This document shows, piece by piece, positions 9,832 to 50,662 of a DNA stretch of 64,000 nucleotides. The number at the start of each line of letters is the position of its first letter. Positions within the stretch are counted from its first letter, which is position 1. The notes beneath the pieces are model-generated. The model worked only from the letters and a program-made list of their open reading frames with translations. It had not been told where the DNA came from and did no database searches. The translations under genes were made by a program, and so were the position numbers. The DNA is taken from positions 35,526,001 through 35,590,000 of the forward strand of contig OX597835.1 in assembly GCA_951406725.2 (NCBI GenBank), given 5' to 3'. The DNA is from Octopus vulgaris. Lineage: Eukaryota.

Positions 9832-11062
9832 TTACCCCTCTGCAAAAGAATTTTATTTAATTCATTTTGCAGGAAGGACTGCTTCGGCCGGATCGTGTTC
9901 TGCCCTTACCTTCGAAACACGCATTGTGTCGAACAAGGGGCAGCTTGTATTGTTTGCCTTATACTCTGTGTTTTCGTTGTTAAAAAAAAGTCCGTTTCCT
10001 TGTTTGTTTTATGTTTTCGTTTCTCGTTGTGTTCTACGTTTATTTGTGGTGTCCTGTACTCTTATATATATATATATATGCAAGTATATATACATATAGA
10101 TGGAGGTATGTACATATATGTATGTATGTATGCATATGTTTTATTTGTTAAATTGTTATTATATGATTGAACGCCTCGCATCACTTTCTTATTTCTCCAA
10201 GTATGTTTTTATTATAATAATTATGACGCGCACTCTCAACTCTTTACTTGACTTTTCCTTCCTGCCTGTCTGTCTTCCTCTCTACCTGTGTCTCTCCTTC
10301 TTATTTTTTACACTTTCTGGTTTCTTTTCCTCTCTTTATCTCACTCCTCCTCCTCCTCCTCCTCCTCCTCCTCCTCTCTCTCACTCCTCCTCCTCCTCCT
10401 CCTCTCTCTCTCACTCCTCCTCTCTCTGGCCGCTGACCGGACTACCTAACTTCCTTTCTCTCGCTGCTTTCAACAAGTCAACATCGACTTTCTTCTTGTC
10501 TCCCGCAAGTCGATCTTCTGAATTGCGTTCCAACGAATTTTTTCACCGTCTAGGCTTAAAAAAGCCCTTAATGTTTGTTTCCTTGTCCTGTTTTTATTCT
10601 TTATGTGTACTGTATTTTTATTTATTTGTATTGCTTTTACGTCCTGTTCTTGCCACATTTTTTTTTACCCCTCTGCAAAAGAAATTTATTTAATTCATTT
10701 TGCAGGAAGGACTGCTTCGGCCGGATCGTGTTCTGCCCTTACCTTCGAAACACGCATCGAGTCGAACCAGGGGCAGCTGATGAAGAGGAATATTCCTTGT
10801 ATTGTTTGTCTTATACTCTGTTTTTTCGTTGTTAAAAAAAGGTCCGTTTCCTTGTTTGTTTTTATGTTTTCGTTTCTCGCTGTGGTCTACGATTATTTGT
10901 GGTGTCCTGTACTCTTATATATATATATATATGCATGTATATATACATATAGATGTAGGTATGTACATATATGTATGTATGTATGCATATGTTTTATTTG
11001 TTAAATTGTTATTATATGATTGAACGCCTCGCGTCACTTTCTTATTTCTCCAAGTAAGTTTT

Positions 11063-11066
<4 letters not shown>
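9832..11066 (+). mobile_element. Retrozyme-like non-coding element, ~1.45 tandem units (period 833 bp)
   Basis: 9832-10215 is repeated at 10665-11066; flanked by TA-rich repeats; no real ORF; one hammerhead-core motif per unit, with a ~20-nt deletion removing CTGATGA in the first unit. Confidence 0.75.
10668..10788 (+). ncRNA. Candidate type-II-order hammerhead-like ribozyme with pseudoknots
   Basis: CCCCT-[CTGCAAAA..TTTTGCAG]-GAAGG...CTGCCCTT-A-CCTTC-GAAAC...GTC-GAACC-AGGGGCAG-CTGATGA-AGAGG; the sister unit at ~9914 has stem III ACAC-gcatt-GTGT-C. Confidence 0.6.
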
Positions 11067-11117
<51 letters not shown>

Positions 11118-28504: not shown

Positions 28505-28780
28505 ATAGTTTAAATGGTTAACGTATTTAAATAATATATAAATATATGCAATATATACATATATATATATGTACATCCCTACATATATATGTATATATAC
28601 ATGCGTATCTGGGTACAGGACATAAAAAAACGTTGAACACAATGAGAAACAAGAATATAAAAACAAAAACATAGAAAACGAACTTTTTTTCGAACAACGA
28701 AAAAACAGAGAAACGAGACATACAACATAAAGAATATTCCCCTTCATCAGTTGTCCCTGTCTCATCTACTCCGCGTTTCA
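28505..28780 (-). mobile_element. 5'-truncated copy of the retrozyme-like family
   Basis: Minus strand GAAAC-GCGGA-GTA-GATGAGACAGGGACAA-CTGATGA-AGGGGaatattc, then the same T-rich tract and tgtcctgtac(c) as 10790-11000. Confidence 0.75.
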
Positions 28781-35808: not shown

Positions 35809-35846
<38 letters not shown>

Positions 35847-36035
35847 AATAAAATATATGCATATATATAAACATATATGTACGTACCTACCTCTACATGT
35901 ACATATACACGCATATATGTGTACAGGACACCAAAAAGACGTCGAACACATAGAGAGACGAAAAACATAGACACAAACCAAGGAACAAGACAGGCAAAAA
36001 AAGAGAGATACAGGACAATAAGCACAACGAAAAAT

Positions 36036-36168
36036 CCCCTTCTTCAGTCGCTAAAGTTTCATCTACTAAACGTTTCGAAGGATAAAAGCGAGACGTATAC
36101 TTCGAATGAAAAATTCCTTCCTGCGAAAAGCAAATCAATTAAAATTCTGAGATCTTTTCGCAGAGGGG
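36036..36168 (-). ncRNA. Candidate type-II-order hammerhead-like ribozyme, copy 1
   Basis: Minus strand CCCCT-[CTGCGAAAAG..CTTTTCGCAG]-GAAGG..TTTCAT..TCGCT..CCTTC-GAA-AC-gttta-GT-A-GATGAAA-cttt-AGCGA-CTGAAGA-AGGGG. Confidence 0.6.
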
Positions 36169-36869
36169 TACAAAAAGCAAGACGGTAACGACAGTACAAA
36201 CATATAAACAGTAAAAAATATATATATAAACAGTGGAAAAATAAATATATAACAGTGAGAGACAGGACAAGGAGAACAAGATAAGAAGGGCTGTTAACGC
36301 CAGACGAAAAAAGTATTGCAAACGCTGGATTATAGTGGACGACGAGAGAGGAAGAAGTCGACCAGTGGCCTTAGAAGGCGGGCGAGAAAGGACAGGATAG
36401 CAGTTACGACGGAAGTACCGTCGCAGATGGACGACGGGAATGGGGGAGGAGGAGCAAGAGGAAGAGAGAGAAGAAGGGGAATGGTGCGAGGAGACCATGA
36501 AGAACAGTGAGGGGGAGAGAGAGAGGAAGAGACAAGTTAAGTGAGGGAAAAAAGACGAAAAAGGGAATGGGAGAGAAAGAAAGAAAGATGCAGAGTCGCG
36601 TGAGAGTTAATATCAAGGCGAACTTGATAAACAGAACAATCTTACTTAATAGGGTGCGTGCGTTTAGTCGTATATATGTTAATAAAATATATGCATATAT
36701 ATAAACATATATGTACGTACCTACCTCTACATGTACATATACACGCATATATGTGTACAGGACACCAAAAAGACGTCGAACACATAGAGAGACGAAAAAC
36801 ATAGACACAAACCAAGGAACAAGACAGGCAAAAAAAGAGAGATACAGGACAATAAGCACAACGAAAAAT

Positions 36870-37002
36870 CCCCTTCTTCAGTCGCTAAAGTTTCATCTAC
36901 TAAACGTTTCGAAGGATAAAAGCGAGACGTATACTTCGAATGAAAAATTCCTTCCTGCGAAAAGCAAATCAATTAAAATTCTGAGATCTTTTCGCAGAGG
37001 GG
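36870..37002 (-). ncRNA. Candidate type-II-order hammerhead-like ribozyme, copy 2
   Basis: Same sequence as 36036-36168, offset by 834 bp. Confidence 0.6.
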
Positions 37003-37280
37003 TACAAAAAGCAAGACGGTAACGACAGTACAAACATATAAACAGTAAAAAATATATATATAAACAGTGGAAAAATAAATATATAACAGTGAGAGACAGG
37101 ACAAGGAGAACAAGATAAGAAGGGCTGTTAACGCCAGACGAAAAAAGTATTGCAAACGCTGGATTATAGTGGACGACGAGAGAGGAAGAAGTCGACCAGT
37201 GGCCTTAGAAGGCGGGCGAGAAAGGACAGGATAGCAGTTACGACGGAAGTACCGTCGCAGATATATATATATATATATAT

Positions 37281-44427: not shown

Positions 44428-45196
44428 TTATTATATGACGGAACGCACGCATCCATTTCTAAGTAAGATTGTTCTTAATATTAATAATGATGCGCACTCT
44501 TAACCTTTCTTTCCCCCTCCCTTTCTCAGCCTTCATTCTTTTGGCTTTCCTTTTCTTCTACCTTACTGTCTCTCCCTCTCTCTTTCTCATTCTTCATTCT
44601 TTTCTCTACAACCATTCCCTTTTTTCTCTCCCTTTCTCTTACTCCTCCTCCTCCCTCCCGTCGCGGACATGTGATGAGAAGGCTACTACTGTCTTTCTTC
44701 TCCTGGCTACCTCGCCGTTCTCAAAAAATAGCGTTCGCAAAAATTTTATCCCGTTCGGCTTAACAGCCCTTCTTGTTTGTGTTACTGTTATTCTCCTTGT
44801 CCTGTATTTTACTGTTTATATTTTGTACTGTCGTTACTGTCCTGTTTTTGTTACCATTTTTACCCCTCCGCAAAAAAATCTCAAATTTTATTTAATTTGA
44901 TTTTCCCGGGAAGGATTGTTTCATTAAAGTCATGTATCACCTTGACCTTCGAAACGTGGAGTAGATGAAACAAAGGCGACTGAAGAAGGGGAATTTTCCT
45001 TGTTCTGTATGTCTTGTACTCTATTTTTCTTTGTTTAAGAAAAATCTCCATTTCCTTGGTTTTCTGTTTATGTTTTCGTTTCTCATTGTGTTCGACGTTT
45101 GGTGTCCTGTACCCATATATGCATGTATATATATATATGTAGAGGTAGGTAGTACATATATGTATGTATATATGCATATGTTTTATTTATTTATTA

Positions 45197-45200
<4 letters not shown>
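44428..45200 (+). mobile_element. Retrozyme-like element, about one unit (~770 bp)
   Basis: Same block order as the 9.8-11 kb and 36 kb copies: aacgcacgca..aagtaagattgttc, CT-rich tract, structured motif, T-rich tract, tgtcctgtac, gtaggt. Confidence 0.75.
44863..44991 (+). ncRNA. Candidate type-II-order hammerhead-like ribozyme
   Basis: CCCCT-[hairpin]-GAAGG-atTGTTTCAT...TCACCTT-ga-CCTTC-GAA-AC-gtgga-GT-A-G-ATGAAACA-AAGGCGA-CTGAAGA-AGGGG. Confidence 0.55.
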
Positions 45201-46232: not shown

Positions 46233-46276
46233 CCACCTGACGAATGTCATTTGAAGACATGAAACGATTGTAGTGG
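46233..46276 (+). ncRNA. Minimal type-I hammerhead ribozyme with an intact core
   Basis: CCAC-CTGACGA-ATGTC-atttgaa-GACAT-GAA-AC-gatt-GT-A-GTGG; predicted GUA cleavage after 46272; lies in an AT-rich, TA-flanked segment (~45990-46370). Confidence 0.88.
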
Positions 46277-47034: not shown

Positions 47035-47670
47035 TTTATGTTTTAAGAAGTTTTTTTTTAAATTAGAAAGGGGAAAAAAGAAAATTGCAATGTTTTTTGT
47101 AAAAGAATAATGATAAAAATGTACAAAAATTAAAAAATAAGTTCTCCGATACATTGTGAGTTCGTTGTGTATCTTGAGTTTTATGGTTGTTTACCAAAAA
47201 ATTACCTTGAGGTGTTAAGATCCAAAGGGATTAAGAGCATGTGATGTGTTGTGTTGTTAAATACAGCATGTTGCAGGACAGGAAGTAGTAGTAATTGTGG
47301 TCCTGGTTCTTCAGTTCCTGTGTTGTGAGTAAGGGGAGACAACTCTTTTGAGTTCTTCAATAAAACCCAAATTATAAAACTATCATTTTAGCTTCATTTG
47401 CATTATCTTTTTTATATATAATTGCTTGTTAACTTAACTTTCAGATTTTAACACTTTATTTATATTATTTTCTAATAATATAAAACTGCATAGACAATTG
47501 CATTTCAAATTGTCATATCATTTATAATAAAAATGATAGTAGTAACAACAACAATAGTGAAAATGATATTTAAAGAATATAAGTTTTAGCTTGAAGTGGT
47601 GAATGCATGGTATCTTTATATATTTGTGTTAGTCCATCCATGAAGAGTGAGGTAGAGAAAGGAAGTTTGA

Positions 47671-49770
47671 TCAACGAGGAGTTTGCATATTAAGTTGTGT
47701 TTGGAATTTTTCAATAAAGAGATTCTCCTTGTTAATTCTCTCCTGTGTGGTGATCCCGTCTTTACATTGGTAGAAGGGGAATATATAGAATTTGGGGTTT
47801 AAGTCTTTGGCACATGAGTCTAAGTGGTCACTCAGTGGAATTTGTCGGTATTCCGGGAGATTTATTTGTTCTTTATGCACCGTTACTCGTTTACGTAACG
47901 GGAGACTCGTTTGTCCCACATAATTATGTTGGCAACCAGCGCATGTGAGAACGTAGATAAGGTTCTCGGAGGAACAGGAGAAGTTAGTCTTGATTTTAAA
48001 CTTCGTACCTTGTTTGAAGGTAAATTCAGAGCCTTCAAGTAGAAAGGGGCAGGTACCACAGTTTGAGCGTGCACATTTTTTTACTGTTGGGGGTGGATGT
48101 GGTGTGTGAAGTTTGGCATTTGTCAAGAGTTTTTTTAAAGATTTGTGTTGCCTTTTGCATTTGAGGATTTTGTGTGTATTTATAATGTTTTTCATTTTTG
48201 GGTCTGTTGACAGTAGACTGAGGTTTTGTATGATTGTGGTGTATGCTTCGATATTTTTGGGGTTGTGGGTGGAAATGTATGGAAGTATTTTGAGGTTGTG
48301 TGTGGTGTTAGGTTGGGTGGTTATCAGTGTAGTGTTGTCTAGTTCTTTGGCGCGTTTTATTCCATACTCTATAAGGGTGGAGGGATATTGACGTTGTAAT
48401 AGTGTTTTTTTGAGGTCTTGAAGGCGTATTTCTCGTGTTTTTGGATCCGAGACAATGGTGCATACCCTTTTAGCTAAATTGAAAGGGATATTTGTCTTGG
48501 TGTGTTTTGGGTGGCATGAACTAAAGAGGAGGTATTGTTGTGAGTCTGTAGGTTTGTGGTAGATGTCTGTTATGATTTGGTTCTTAGGTGTTTTTATAAT
48601 TAGGAGATCAAGGAATGGGAGATGATGTTTGCTAAATTCCATAGTGAATTGGATGTTGGGATGTATGTTGTTTAGTATGGTTTTGAATTCCAGGAGTTTT
48701 TCATAAGGTTCTTTCCATATGATGAAACAATCATCTAAATACCTTTTCCAGTTTTCCATTAGGTAGGTGTGGAAAACTTGTCCAAATTTCTGGCTTGATA
48801 TTTCATAGAGTGACAGTTCGAAGTAACCCATTATGAGGTTCGCAAGGACTGGTGCAGCCTTGGTACCCATCGCAATGCCACATTTTTGACGGTAGTGTGT
48901 GTCGTCGAAGAGAAAAAAATTGTTTGTCAGAATGAACTTAAGAGATTCTGTAATAAAAGACTTGTTAATGCGGTCAGGGAATGTCTCTGGGTGTTTTTCT
49001 AGCCAGAAGTCAATTGCCTCTATACCATACTCATGTGGAATGTTGGTGTAGAGGTTGATGACATCAAAGGATACCAGGAGTGCCTCCTCGTTAACTGTTT
49101 TCGGGAGGTGTTTGAGCATGTCCAGATCATCCCTAATGAAACTTTTGATGTGGGTAAGGAAAGGTTTCAAAAGGATGTCTAGGAAGTTACTCAGGCGGTG
49201 TGTTTCACAGGAGGTACCCGCCACGATGGGCCTTAGTTTTAGGTCCTCCGGTGCTTTGATGTTGATGTGGATGTCAGTGGAGAGTTTGCAGGCTTCGGTG
49301 ATGTATTTGTTTTTATGGATTTTAGGAAGGCCATAAAAAAGGCTGGGCTTGCATTTGAAAATGGTGATATAATCCCTTTCTTTTTCTGTGAGTCCCTGGC
49401 CGTGTTGGCGTATGAGTGTGGTGAGGTTTCTGATTGTTTTTTGCTGTTTGTAGTTGTTAATAACCTCATAGAAAATGTTATTGTTAAGCATGGAGAACAC
49501 TAGGTGTTTATAAAATTCCGTGTCCATAAGGACCACAGCACTCCCTTTGTCCGCTTCTTTGATGGTGAGGTTTTTATCCAGTTGTATGTCACGTAGGTTT
49601 TCCCATTCTTCCTTACTGAAATTGGATTTTACCTTGGTTTTGCTTGGGGTAAAGGGGAGACTCTGGATATGTTTACAGAAATCGTCCAGTGTTTTATTTC
49701 TCCCTTTTGGTGGTAGGAAGTTGCTTTTATTTCTGATCAATGAGTCGTCCCCATTGTTGATATCTGTCAA
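47671..49770 (-). CDS. Penelope-like reverse transcriptase / GIY-YIG endonuclease polyprotein (N-terminus lies upstream of a frameshift)
   Basis: 699 open codons: IKEADKGS, FYGLPKIHK, LRPIVA, SFDVINLYTNIP, QKCGIAMGTKAAP, RYLDD, LPFLDL, CxxxxCxxC linker (CARSNCGTC), NLIYVLTC..YVGQT. The conserved IINLSS...LARGLKFTPTP at 49835-49925 is in another frame (shift in the C-run at ~49826-49830). Confidence 0.93.
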   Translation of the reverse strand: MTDINNGDDSLIRNKSNFLPPKGRNKTLDDFCKHIQSLPFTPSKTKVKSNFSKEEWENLRDIQLDKNLTIKEADKGSAVVLMDTEFYKHLVFSMLNNNIFYEVINNYKQQKTIRNLTTLIRQHGQGLTEKERDYITIFKCKPSLFYGLPKIHKNKYITEACKLSTDIHINIKAPEDLKLRPIVAGTSCETHRLSNFLDILLKPFLTHIKSFIRDDLDMLKHLPKTVNEEALLVSFDVINLYTNIPHEYGIEAIDFWLEKHPETFPDRINKSFITESLKFILTNNFFLFDDTHYRQKCGIAMGTKAAPVLANLIMGYFELSLYEISSQKFGQVFHTYLMENWKRYLDDCFIIWKEPYEKLLEFKTILNNIHPNIQFTMEFSKHHLPFLDLLIIKTPKNQIITDIYHKPTDSQQYLLFSSCHPKHTKTNIPFNLAKRVCTIVSDPKTREIRLQDLKKTLLQRQYPSTLIEYGIKRAKELDNTTLITTQPNTTHNLKILPYISTHNPKNIEAYTTIIQNLSLLSTDPKMKNIINTHKILKCKRQHKSLKKLLTNAKLHTPHPPPTVKKCARSNCGTCPFLLEGSEFTFKQGTKFKIKTNFSCSSENLIYVLTCAGCQHNYVGQTSLPLRKRVTVHKEQINLPEYRQIPLSDHLDSCAKDLNPKFYIFPFYQCKDGITTQERINKENLFIEKFQTQLNMQTPR

Positions 49771-50662
49771 AGCTTCTGTTAGGCGAAGTTTTCTGCAGAA
49801 TTCAGAAACGTCATCCTTGACCTCCGGGGGTTGGGTGTTCTTGGGGTGGGTGTGAATTTCAAACCTCTTGCTAGGATGTTGATTTGGGTTGGTGTCAGTG
49901 TTTTGCTGGAGAGGTTTATAATTTTTGTTTTCTTATTTTGGGTCTGTGTTAGCGGTGGTGTTTGTATTTTTCCCCTCTGTCTAAAAAATGGTTGTTGAGG
50001 TAAGGGGTGTATTCTTTGTTAAAGTTCTGGTTGTATGTGTAGGAGTGTTTTTGGGTGGGGAGGTTGGAGGGGGTAGGTAGTTGTCGTATTTGTGTTGGTA
50101 TGGGATGCGATGGTGTAAGGATTTGTGAGAAATGCGATGGGTTTGTGTGTGTGTGTCTGGTAGATTGTATGGGGGGATGTAGGGGGGTATGTAGTTGTGG
50201 TGATTGGGTTCGTGTGGGATGTGAGGGTTTGGAGATCTGTAGGAGATGTGGTAGGAATGTGGTTGTTGGATGGGTGGACTATAGGGGGTTCGTTGGGTGG
50301 GTCTTATATGTATCGGTGTGGGTAGGATGCCTTGTTTGTTATTAGTGTGAGGGAGGGGAGCCTTGAGGGGGGGATAATTTCTAGTGTATGGGAGGTTCTT
50401 GAAGGTTCTAATCGGTGGGGGAGGTGTGTTAGAGTGATTGGAAAACCAGGTTTTGTGGTGGGTCTTGTTTGAGATGTTTCGGGGGGAAAGGGTTTTTTAT
50501 ATGGTTGGGGGAGGTTGTGTCCTGTTAGGAGGGGGTTTGGAGAGTATGTGTATTTGAGGTGCGGTTTGGAATGGTGTTTATGGGGTACAGTGGAAGTCTG
50601 TGTTGTGGGTACTTTTATGAATGGGTTTTTGGATTTATGGTTTAATATGAATTGTGTTTCAA

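Follow-up and report, generated by a model that had tools for sequence, protein, structure and literature searches.

A candidate hammerhead ribozyme with S-G-C block order and an apparently opened block C in a non-coding repeat of Octopus vulgaris

Copies of the motif in the window and in the genome

The window, the whole stretch of 64,000 nucleotides of Octopus vulgaris DNA analysed here, contains three insertions of a non-coding repeat that carry copies of a conserved, hammerhead-like RNA motif. Insertion A (9832..11068, plus strand) consists of a 5'-truncated unit, a full unit with a period of 832 bp and a tail of about 55 nt, and lies between simple repeats. Insertion B (35837..37262, minus strand), flanked by (TA)n tracts, comprises about 1.7 tandem units of 834 bp, and insertion C (44432..45200, plus strand, ends approximate) a single unit, also between (TA)n tracts. 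Four copies of the motif had been located in an earlier note on this DNA, and all four are present where it placed them, carrying CCTTC-GAAAC...GT(C/A)...CTGA(T/A)GA-AG(G/A)GG in the window sequence.

Copy A (10668..10788, plus strand; delimited from sequence and alignment) opens with the 5' strand of a helix P1 (10668-10672, its 3' strand, with one mismatch, being 10784-10788), followed by a hairpin P2 (10673-10705), the G10.1 strand of stem II (10706-10710) and a clamp strand X (10712-10718). These are followed by the 16.x strand of stem III (10727-10731), H17 (U, 10732), with the predicted cut directly 3' of it, the 1.x strand of stem I (10733-10738) and, after a 3-nt linker, the 11.x strand (10742-10746) and GAAA (10747-10750). 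The clamp strand X' (10764-10770), the 2.x strand (10771-10776) and CUGAUGA (10777-10783) precede the closing strand of P1. Copy B2 (36036..36168, minus strand; from sequence) pairs 36168-36164 with 36040-36036 as P1, and has P2 at 36163-36121, the G10.1 strand at 36120-36116, H17 (C) at 36092, the 11.x strand at 36081-36077, G12 at 36076 and CUGAAGA at 36047-36041. Copy B1 (36870..37002, minus strand; H17 (C) at 36926, G12 at 36910), 834 bp away, is identical to it. In copy C (44863..44991, plus strand; from sequence and alignment), P2 is found at 44868-44909, the G10.1 strand at 44910-44914, H17 (A) at 44936, G12 at 44951 and CUGAAGA at 44980-44986. Incomplete copies also occur: a broken one (approximately 9832..9949, plus strand) has an intact 5' half (H17 9899, G12 9914) but a deleted CUGAUGA core, a 5'-truncated copy (28525..28779, minus strand) starts with the bases GAAAC, and another 5'-truncated copy (about 61975..62270, plus strand), belonging to a second large family with a stem II of GAGCA/TGCTC type, begins just past GAAA.

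The motif itself is confirmed as real and far above chance. A tight core pattern gave 4,871 exact matches in the 2.8-Gb genome and 0 when reversed, and relaxed core patterns added 222, 366 and, for a non-C base after GAAA, 3,261 matches (controls 22, 9 and, with the reversed pattern, 11, respectively), including families with different helix sequences. Since the core letters of this wider set are fixed by the search patterns, core conservation there is no independent test; in the four window copies, found without a core-wide search, both CUGANGA and GAAA are present. The RNA would measure about 120-135 nt, and many natural variants exist. The expectation of the earlier note that existing models would not fit was borne out, in that an Rfam scan of 201 nt around copy B2 gave four weak matches, none to a hammerhead model. 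A scan of the whole window gave 596 matches, and the 150 of these that were listed are microRNA models on simple repeats, with no hammerhead among them.

Motifs resembling minimal type I hammerheads, from other repeat families, were observed at 46237 (plus), 59315 (minus), 150 (minus) and 35444 (minus). The family of 59315 and 150 also sits inverted beside a Penelope-like open reading frame in locus L422.

Block order and covariation of the helices

In 70 loci inspected by eye, the strand 3' of GAA (from A15.1 onward) is complementary to an upstream strand ending in GT, which is followed by one base and then by a strand that pairs with the bases 5' of CUGANGA. Because the A15.1 strand pairs upstream, the cleavage block precedes GAAA, which gives the order S-G-C and not the type-II order claimed in the earlier note; the helix concerned, stem III, was missing from that account. 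Its partner strands differ between families (CGTGT/ACACG, ACGT/ACGT, CTCAT/ATGAG, CCCAGT/ACTGGG).

Covariation was assessed in a MAFFT alignment of 46 real copies, made with no structure given. A filter on pairing in P1, P2 and stem II was passed by 78 of 218 distinct core matches, 44 of which were hand-picked to span the subfamilies, near-duplicates and mis-parsed rows being dropped; window copies A and C, neither of which passed the filter, were added. The filter inflates the percentage paired for these three helices, whereas stems I and III were unfiltered. The five-helix model pairs 91.7% of 1,277 cells, compared to 76.2% in shuffled alignments, although such cell counts overstate the independent changes because the copies share descent (by eye, the independent lineages amount to perhaps ten subfamilies in 3-4 deep groups). 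Double changes occur in 22 of 28 pairs, a number reached in none of 500 shuffles, in agreement with the covariation that the earlier note had proposed from few copies; slid controls paired 39.7-46.8% of cells.

Stem I, which had been thought to lack a normal form, is paired at the upstream site in 92.1% of cells and changes on both sides in all six of its pairs. The corresponding values are 92.9% and three of four pairs for stem III, and 96.1%, as inflated by the filter, and four of five pairs for stem II with its upstream partner. Next to the core, the G10.1-C11.1 pair is found in 43 of 46 copies and the A15.1-U16.1 pair (columns 85-107) in 45. In an all-versus-all scan of column pairs for mutual information, predicted pairs of stems I, II and III occupy seven of the 11 highest ranks, with 1.1-2.1 (UA in 33 and CG in 13 of the 46 copies) in first place. 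Position 17 is A in 21, C in 13, U in 12 and G in none of the copies, and U16.1 is kept in 45 of 46; neither position was part of the search patterns that yielded the new families. These positions of the upstream site agree with the NUH rule for hammerhead cleavage triplets.

Six helices (stems I, II and III, P1, P2 and X/X') are shown by covariation. X/X' was tested by duplex energy and not pair by pair, because MAFFT shifts that region; cognate strands gave -7.1 and non-cognate strands -3.9 kcal/mol (permutation p 0.0002). The complementarities listed in the earlier note do exist and vary in concert across families, and two of them recur in the present fold: its pairing of 5' CCCCT with AGGGG corresponds to P1, which varies jointly across families, and that of GAAGG with CCTTC to stem II, whose partner strands swap jointly (GAAGG/CCTTC, GAGCA/TGCTC, GCACC/GGTGC, GTGCC/GGCAC). 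What it had drawn as crossing helices are real pairings, but they represent stem I, stem II and the clamp between these stems. The 1.x strand together with its linker measures 8-11 nt in all 46 copies, i.e. a linker of about 2-5 nt after a 6-bp stem.

Among 226 genome core matches, some of them truncated copies, 118 can form at least eight of nine pairs at the upstream site, compared to two of 204 chance core matches among the viral and metagenome contig matches listed. These viral and metagenome matches, the latter obtained with a loose pattern, served as a negative control, and in the metagenome contigs model R1 had no match in 80 loci searched. Nested folding gave weak z-scores (-0.3 to -2.5, seven sequences). 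In the CCTTC families, including the minus-strand segment 36047-36036, G8-A9-AGG of the core has the same sequence as the upstream G10.1 strand; here the core's own GAAGG could compete for the 11.x strand and displace the G10.1 strand, giving an inactive fold. In the GAGCA families the core sequence has no such identity to the upstream G10.1 strand.

Monomer or dimer

Together, stem III and X/X' make up one long hairpin, the loop of which must pair with both of its own flanks, and nested folding often yields a single long hairpin that starts at X and includes stem III. The internal loop between X/X' and stem III measures about 3-5 nt a side, being only a 3-nt bulge in L047 and L049, and often consists of RAAR opposite AGUA (both present in 23 of 46 copies); this AGUA contains the GUA that had previously been taken as the cut site. 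The RAAR/AGUA loop resembles the sarcin-ricin/loop E motif, and would stiffen the rod. On geometric reasoning, we give a slight preference to the folding of all helices within one molecule, at somewhat better than even chance, and consider the swapping of parts between two copies as a dimer to fall somewhat short of even.

An obligate domain-swapped dimer has the same fold and is a version of our best explanation, not an alternative fold; we regard it as a serious but minority possibility. Stem III, the internal loop and X/X' would then form one nearly straight rod, with one copy's apical loop (cut site, 1.x and 11.x strands, GAAA) docking on the base of a second (G10.1 strand, 2.x strand, CUGANGA), such that tandem precursors would undergo cleavage while monomers or monomer circles stayed intact. 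A monomer needs a U-turn of both strands through the internal loop, whereas a two-fold dimer keeps every helix without a turn, and the rod favoured in nested folding, the stiffening expected of RAAR/AGUA and the short bulge in L047/L049 point in the same direction, as does the dimeric action reported for metazoan type I, Penelope and salamander hammerheads in the available text of PMC4209133 and PMC7229834. On the other hand, we estimate that the length of the clamp plus linkers roughly fits the span that a monomer would require, genomic copies are mostly single, and type-SGC RNAs were cut during transcription in vitro with 0-44 nt at this joint (PMC10085705; the available text discusses no oligomeric state of these RNAs). 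It is less likely than not that the motif is a dimer-only hammerhead outside the six-permutation scheme, the copies of which cut each other's site: it would count tandem copies, free unit-length RNA from multimers, leave monomer circles intact and set the template 5' ends for a mobile repeat of more than 8,000 copies.

Genomic breakpoints and predicted cleavage

Copies of the repeat were sampled, independently of the ribozyme, through a tag 150-170 nt downstream (6,071 matches), 70 loci yielding 72 distinct tagged copies. The cut site was predicted before the breakpoints were analysed, while the window -3..+12 around it, in which 13 of the 5' ends fall in 619 nt at risk, was drawn after the data had been seen. 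By comparison, there are four 5' ends in 2,995 nt at risk at -100..-4 (binomial p 1.3e-7), none in 495 nt at -18..-4, and 26 in 9,680 nt over +13..+167. The peak lies at +5..+11, not at 0, and breakpoints are uncertain by a few bases owing to TA microhomology. Eleven tagged copies, seven of them self-matches, reach the end of the 600-nt references, and at least one pair among the 72 copies shares one junction (L247/L250). For the second family the same window holds three events, which is not significant (p 0.063); 8 of its 22 breakpoints lie at -4..+15, including that of one first-family copy starting exactly at nucleotide 1.1, and 2 of 22 at -5..-100. About 33 of the 72 copies read through the predicted site, and RNA that is uncut, multimeric or re-joined thus serves as template too.

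The accumulation of breakpoints just 3' of the predicted site is consistent with cleavage in vivo. Most simply, the cut would have supplied the 5' end of many templates, which then lost a few bases when they were joined to TA repeats. With the fold supported by covariation, the motif would work like a hammerhead, and we infer from the genomic copies that it cuts. For an anole Penelope-like element, the available text of PMC11167929 describes no RNA reads whose start or end falls on the hammerhead site, and cleavage that needed protein.

It seems improbable that the structure is merely derived from a hammerhead, no longer cuts and has been kept for protein binding, with the pile-up arising from stalling of the reverse transcriptase or from TA microhomology. 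The breakpoint peak does lie at a distance of 5-11 nt from the site, where pairing is dense, and 37 of 58 truncation junctions abut simple repeats (at most 6 nt away), as this reading would have it. However, the NUH rule and every core-adjacent pair have been kept across deeply diverged families, and the 15 nt just 5' of the peak window, an equally structured region, contain no breakpoints.

The opened block C and the four-way junction

The G10.1 strand and the clamp strand X both lie 5' of block S, and the strand that follows the core pairs with the 5' end of the motif as P1 (CCCCT/AGGGG, GACCCT/AGGGTC, CCCTAATTCT/AGGATTAGGG). P1, P2, stem II and the core meet without a spare base, there being no alignment columns between them, and the three junction-closing pairs are all canonical in 40 of 46 copies. 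On the basis of these features, we propose that the motif corresponds to a circular permutation of type SGC, opened within block C between A9 and G10.1. Type SGC is characterized by an uninterrupted block C, whereas the covarying partner of the 11.x strand is here the upstream one; the layout appears to lie outside the published six permutations of the hammerhead blocks.

A plain type SGC, in which the 11.x strand would pair with the AGGG right after the core, and the upstream pairings of P1, P2 and GAAGG would constitute an off-state or switch, is quite unlikely. Such a stem II pairs 77.4% of cells, which is above shuffles, one of its pairs ranks high in mutual information, and its duplex energy is slightly better for cognate than for non-cognate strands (-2.5 versus -2.0). 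Nevertheless, it was rejected, since it consists mostly of G-U pairs, changes on both sides in only one of five pairs and fails at the outer pair in 43 of 46 copies, compared to 96.1% of cells and four of five pairs for the upstream partner. Moreover, clamp strand X adjoins the upstream G10.1 strand and not the post-core strand.

Very improbable is the model of the earlier note, with type-II order, no normal stem I and a cut after GUA/GUC downstream of GAAA: 183 of 226 genome copies allow a 2-bp stem III, a downstream GT is common and six breakpoints lie at +13..+27, but the identical stem can also be drawn in 89 of 204 chance matches among those listed and shows no compensatory change, stem I pairs in 5.5% of cells, pairing overall (32.3% of cells) does not exceed the shuffled mean (33.5%), and the breakpoint rate just 3' of its site (two in 794 nt at risk) equals background. 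The stem III ACAC/GTGT that it had seen near 9917 is a coincidence in one copy; in the families a U at 15.2 goes with an A at the upstream 16.2, whereas the downstream GT stays constant. Membership of type II (GSC) was likewise rejected, as hairpin stems III and I are unsupported at the downstream site and the Rfam scan around copy B2 gave no hammerhead match. The cut is now predicted about 30 bases further upstream, in copy B2 after 36092 and not after 36064, although the region 36020-36180 chosen in the note does contain the whole ribozyme. Its hammerhead reading thus survives with respect to the multi-pseudoknot or strand-swapped character, the lack of an Rfam match and the covariation of most helices, but not with respect to block order, stem I and cut site.

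In addition, loci L131, L136, L140, L143, L145, L148 and L149 belong to old families that have diverged deeply; they keep the S-G-C order and have other helix sequences. In these families, which lie outside the 46-copy alignment, the four-way junction is only partly recognisable.

The host repeat and its link to Penelope-like elements

The host unit is about 830 bp long and non-coding. Two of the window insertions are partial tandems (periods 832 and 834 bp), and tandem periods across the genome copies range from 826 to 898 bp. The near-identity of tandem units, tried as a sign of rolling-circle replication, was found to be uninformative, since unlinked copies are likewise 95-100% alike. Simple repeats surround the insertions, which are 5'-truncated and in some cases tandem, and inverted 5' parts were seen by eye in about six of 72 copies. 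Two 3' ends occur, about 45-55 nt apart; of the tails of the 72 copies, a script classified 33 as absent, six as long, four as 'short' and seven as running into the next unit, with 22 unclassified, and by eye about four more are long. An optional 3' tail of 30-40 bp and two start sites of reverse transcription are described as a Penelope-like signature in the available text of PMC11167929, and the insertion hallmarks of the host repeat agree with those of Penelope-like elements (bioRxiv 2021.04.23.441226, PMC11167929, as far as their available text goes).

Because no coding locus examined carries the ribozyme, mobilisation of the repeat by a Penelope-like protein, which we consider probable, is something that we infer. 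Beside an RT/GIY-YIG reading frame, the ribozyme was found at none of 50 coding loci (131 scored; 16,842 first-look candidates), and among the first 270 repeat loci five have fragments of reading frames nearby, none of them clearly continuous. Assembled contigs of four sequencing runs, two of them labelled as other organisms, cover the ribozyme region and carry no information on ends, strand or expression.

The window also contains an intact frame of 753 aa (47671-49932, minus strand) of a young Penelope-like element with an RVT_1 match and without this ribozyme. By eye, it has zinc-finger motifs and a GIY-YIG-like end that includes a CxxxxCxxC linker; in the genome, dozens of copies are 98-100% identical. 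At about 47260-47330 (minus strand), 3' of this frame, and also in L391-L420, a conserved CUGAAGA is found whose flanks pair with two adjacent downstream strands (AGGAA/TTCCT, CAGGAC/GTCCTG) in a C-S-G-like order, with CAA(A) in place of GAAA and no clear UH triplet, and which is possibly a degenerate or variant permuted hammerhead. A fragment of the C-terminal domain of a non-LTR retrotransposon (20916-21223, minus strand; nuclease-like by eye) lies between long (TTA)n tracts.

Proposed mechanism and significance

We consider it likely that the motif is a hammerhead of S-G-C order in which the chain is interrupted between A9 and G10.1, a four-way junction closing the interruption, and that it cleaves the RNA made from a non-coding repeat, probably a Penelope-mobilised one, just 3' of the upstream UH triplet. 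From 5' to 3', the order would be P1 strand, hairpin P2, G10.1 strand, clamp X, stem III 16.x strand, H17, stem I 1.x strand and a short linker, followed by the 11.x strand, GAAA, 15.x strand, clamp X', 2.x strand, CUGANGA and the closing P1 strand. After A9 the chain would leave into the closing helix, and the G10.1 strand would enter from the 5' side through the gap-free four-way junction. Judging from the known hammerhead core, stem II would stack on the A9/G12 side of the core and P1 on P2, and because of this stacking the P1-P2 stack would hold the broken block C in register. Four-way junctions such as that of the hairpin ribozyme are a further basis for this stacking. The clamp X/X' would join the far ends of stems I and II, as does the 'I' helix in type SGC. 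The genomic breakpoints suggest that the cut forms the 5' end of many reverse-transcription templates, and that copying from about 230-280 nt downstream would run off at the cut; longer copies would stem from uncut, multimeric or circular RNA.

The published scheme of 2023 recognises three unbreakable blocks in six orders. As the motif appears to break block C, that list would be incomplete. Non-circular permutations, known from rare metatranscriptome contigs, would also be represented by thousands of copies on the chromosomes of an animal, and descriptor searches for types I-III and SGC would miss such copies; this is relevant to the reported lack of hammerheads in some Penelope-like clades. 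The breakpoint pile-up provides genomic evidence on the role of hammerheads in endonuclease-bearing Penelope-like elements, a question posed in the available part of bioRxiv 2021.04.23.441226.

Comparison with known hammerheads

Type SGC (HRIMA-1), a class of non-circularly permuted hammerheads, was described by Eckert et al. 2023 from 583 predicted examples in metatranscriptome contigs (PMC10085705). These authors state, in the text available, that in all known alignments CUGAnGA is separated from its stems by 1-2 nt at most, from which the six permutations follow. The octopus motif shares with type SGC the S-G-C order, the conserved core, a short linker between the 1.x and 11.x strands (typically 3 nt in SGC), a 5-bp stem II and a helix that joins the far ends of stems I and II. 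The layout of the tested ribozyme SGC-2, as read from its oligonucleotides, is also similar, including an extra base after A9 (PMC10085705, available part). In type SGC as described there, however, block C is intact, with the G10.1 strand and then the clamp strand following CUGAnGA, whereas here both strands precede block S, and a four-way junction with P1 and P2 closes the break. Furthermore, SGC is known from metatranscriptome contigs and the present motif from thousands of chromosomal copies in a mobile repeat of an animal. In the literature searched, which leaves most subscription papers outside, type SGC was found in PMC10085705 alone, and no hammerhead with the present layout was found; the supplementary alignment of PMC10085705 or a repeat-database entry could bear on this novelty.

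Type II (GSC) hammerheads with a loop I pseudoknot likewise have a Watson-Crick helix clamping stems I and II (Perreault et al. 2011, PMC3088659), but their cut site lies 3' of GAAA, while that of the octopus motif is predicted 5' of it. The core insertions described in the available text of that paper are short ones only.

As in the minimal type I hammerheads of metazoan Penelope elements (Cervera and de la Pena 2014, PMC4209133), there is a base between A9 and stem II, dimer action is possible, and the host repeat has Penelope-like insertion hallmarks. Those hammerheads, as far as described in the available text, have C-G-S order and a stem III of 0-2 bp, in contrast to the 4-6-bp stem III and the pseudoknotted fold found here. 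The host repeat also resembles animal non-LTR retrozymes (Cervera and de la Pena 2020, PMC7229834) in being non-coding, of low GC content and organised in tandem or partial-tandem units with one hammerhead each. Whereas these retrozymes measure 150-450 bp and, in the portions available, carry canonical type I hammerheads, the octopus units are about 830-900 bp long, mostly single, 5'-truncated, provided with Penelope-like tails and known from genomic DNA. Taken at sequence level, the motif would not be type SGC in the strict sense, but rather a variant of the hammerhead class with an apparently undescribed wiring order.
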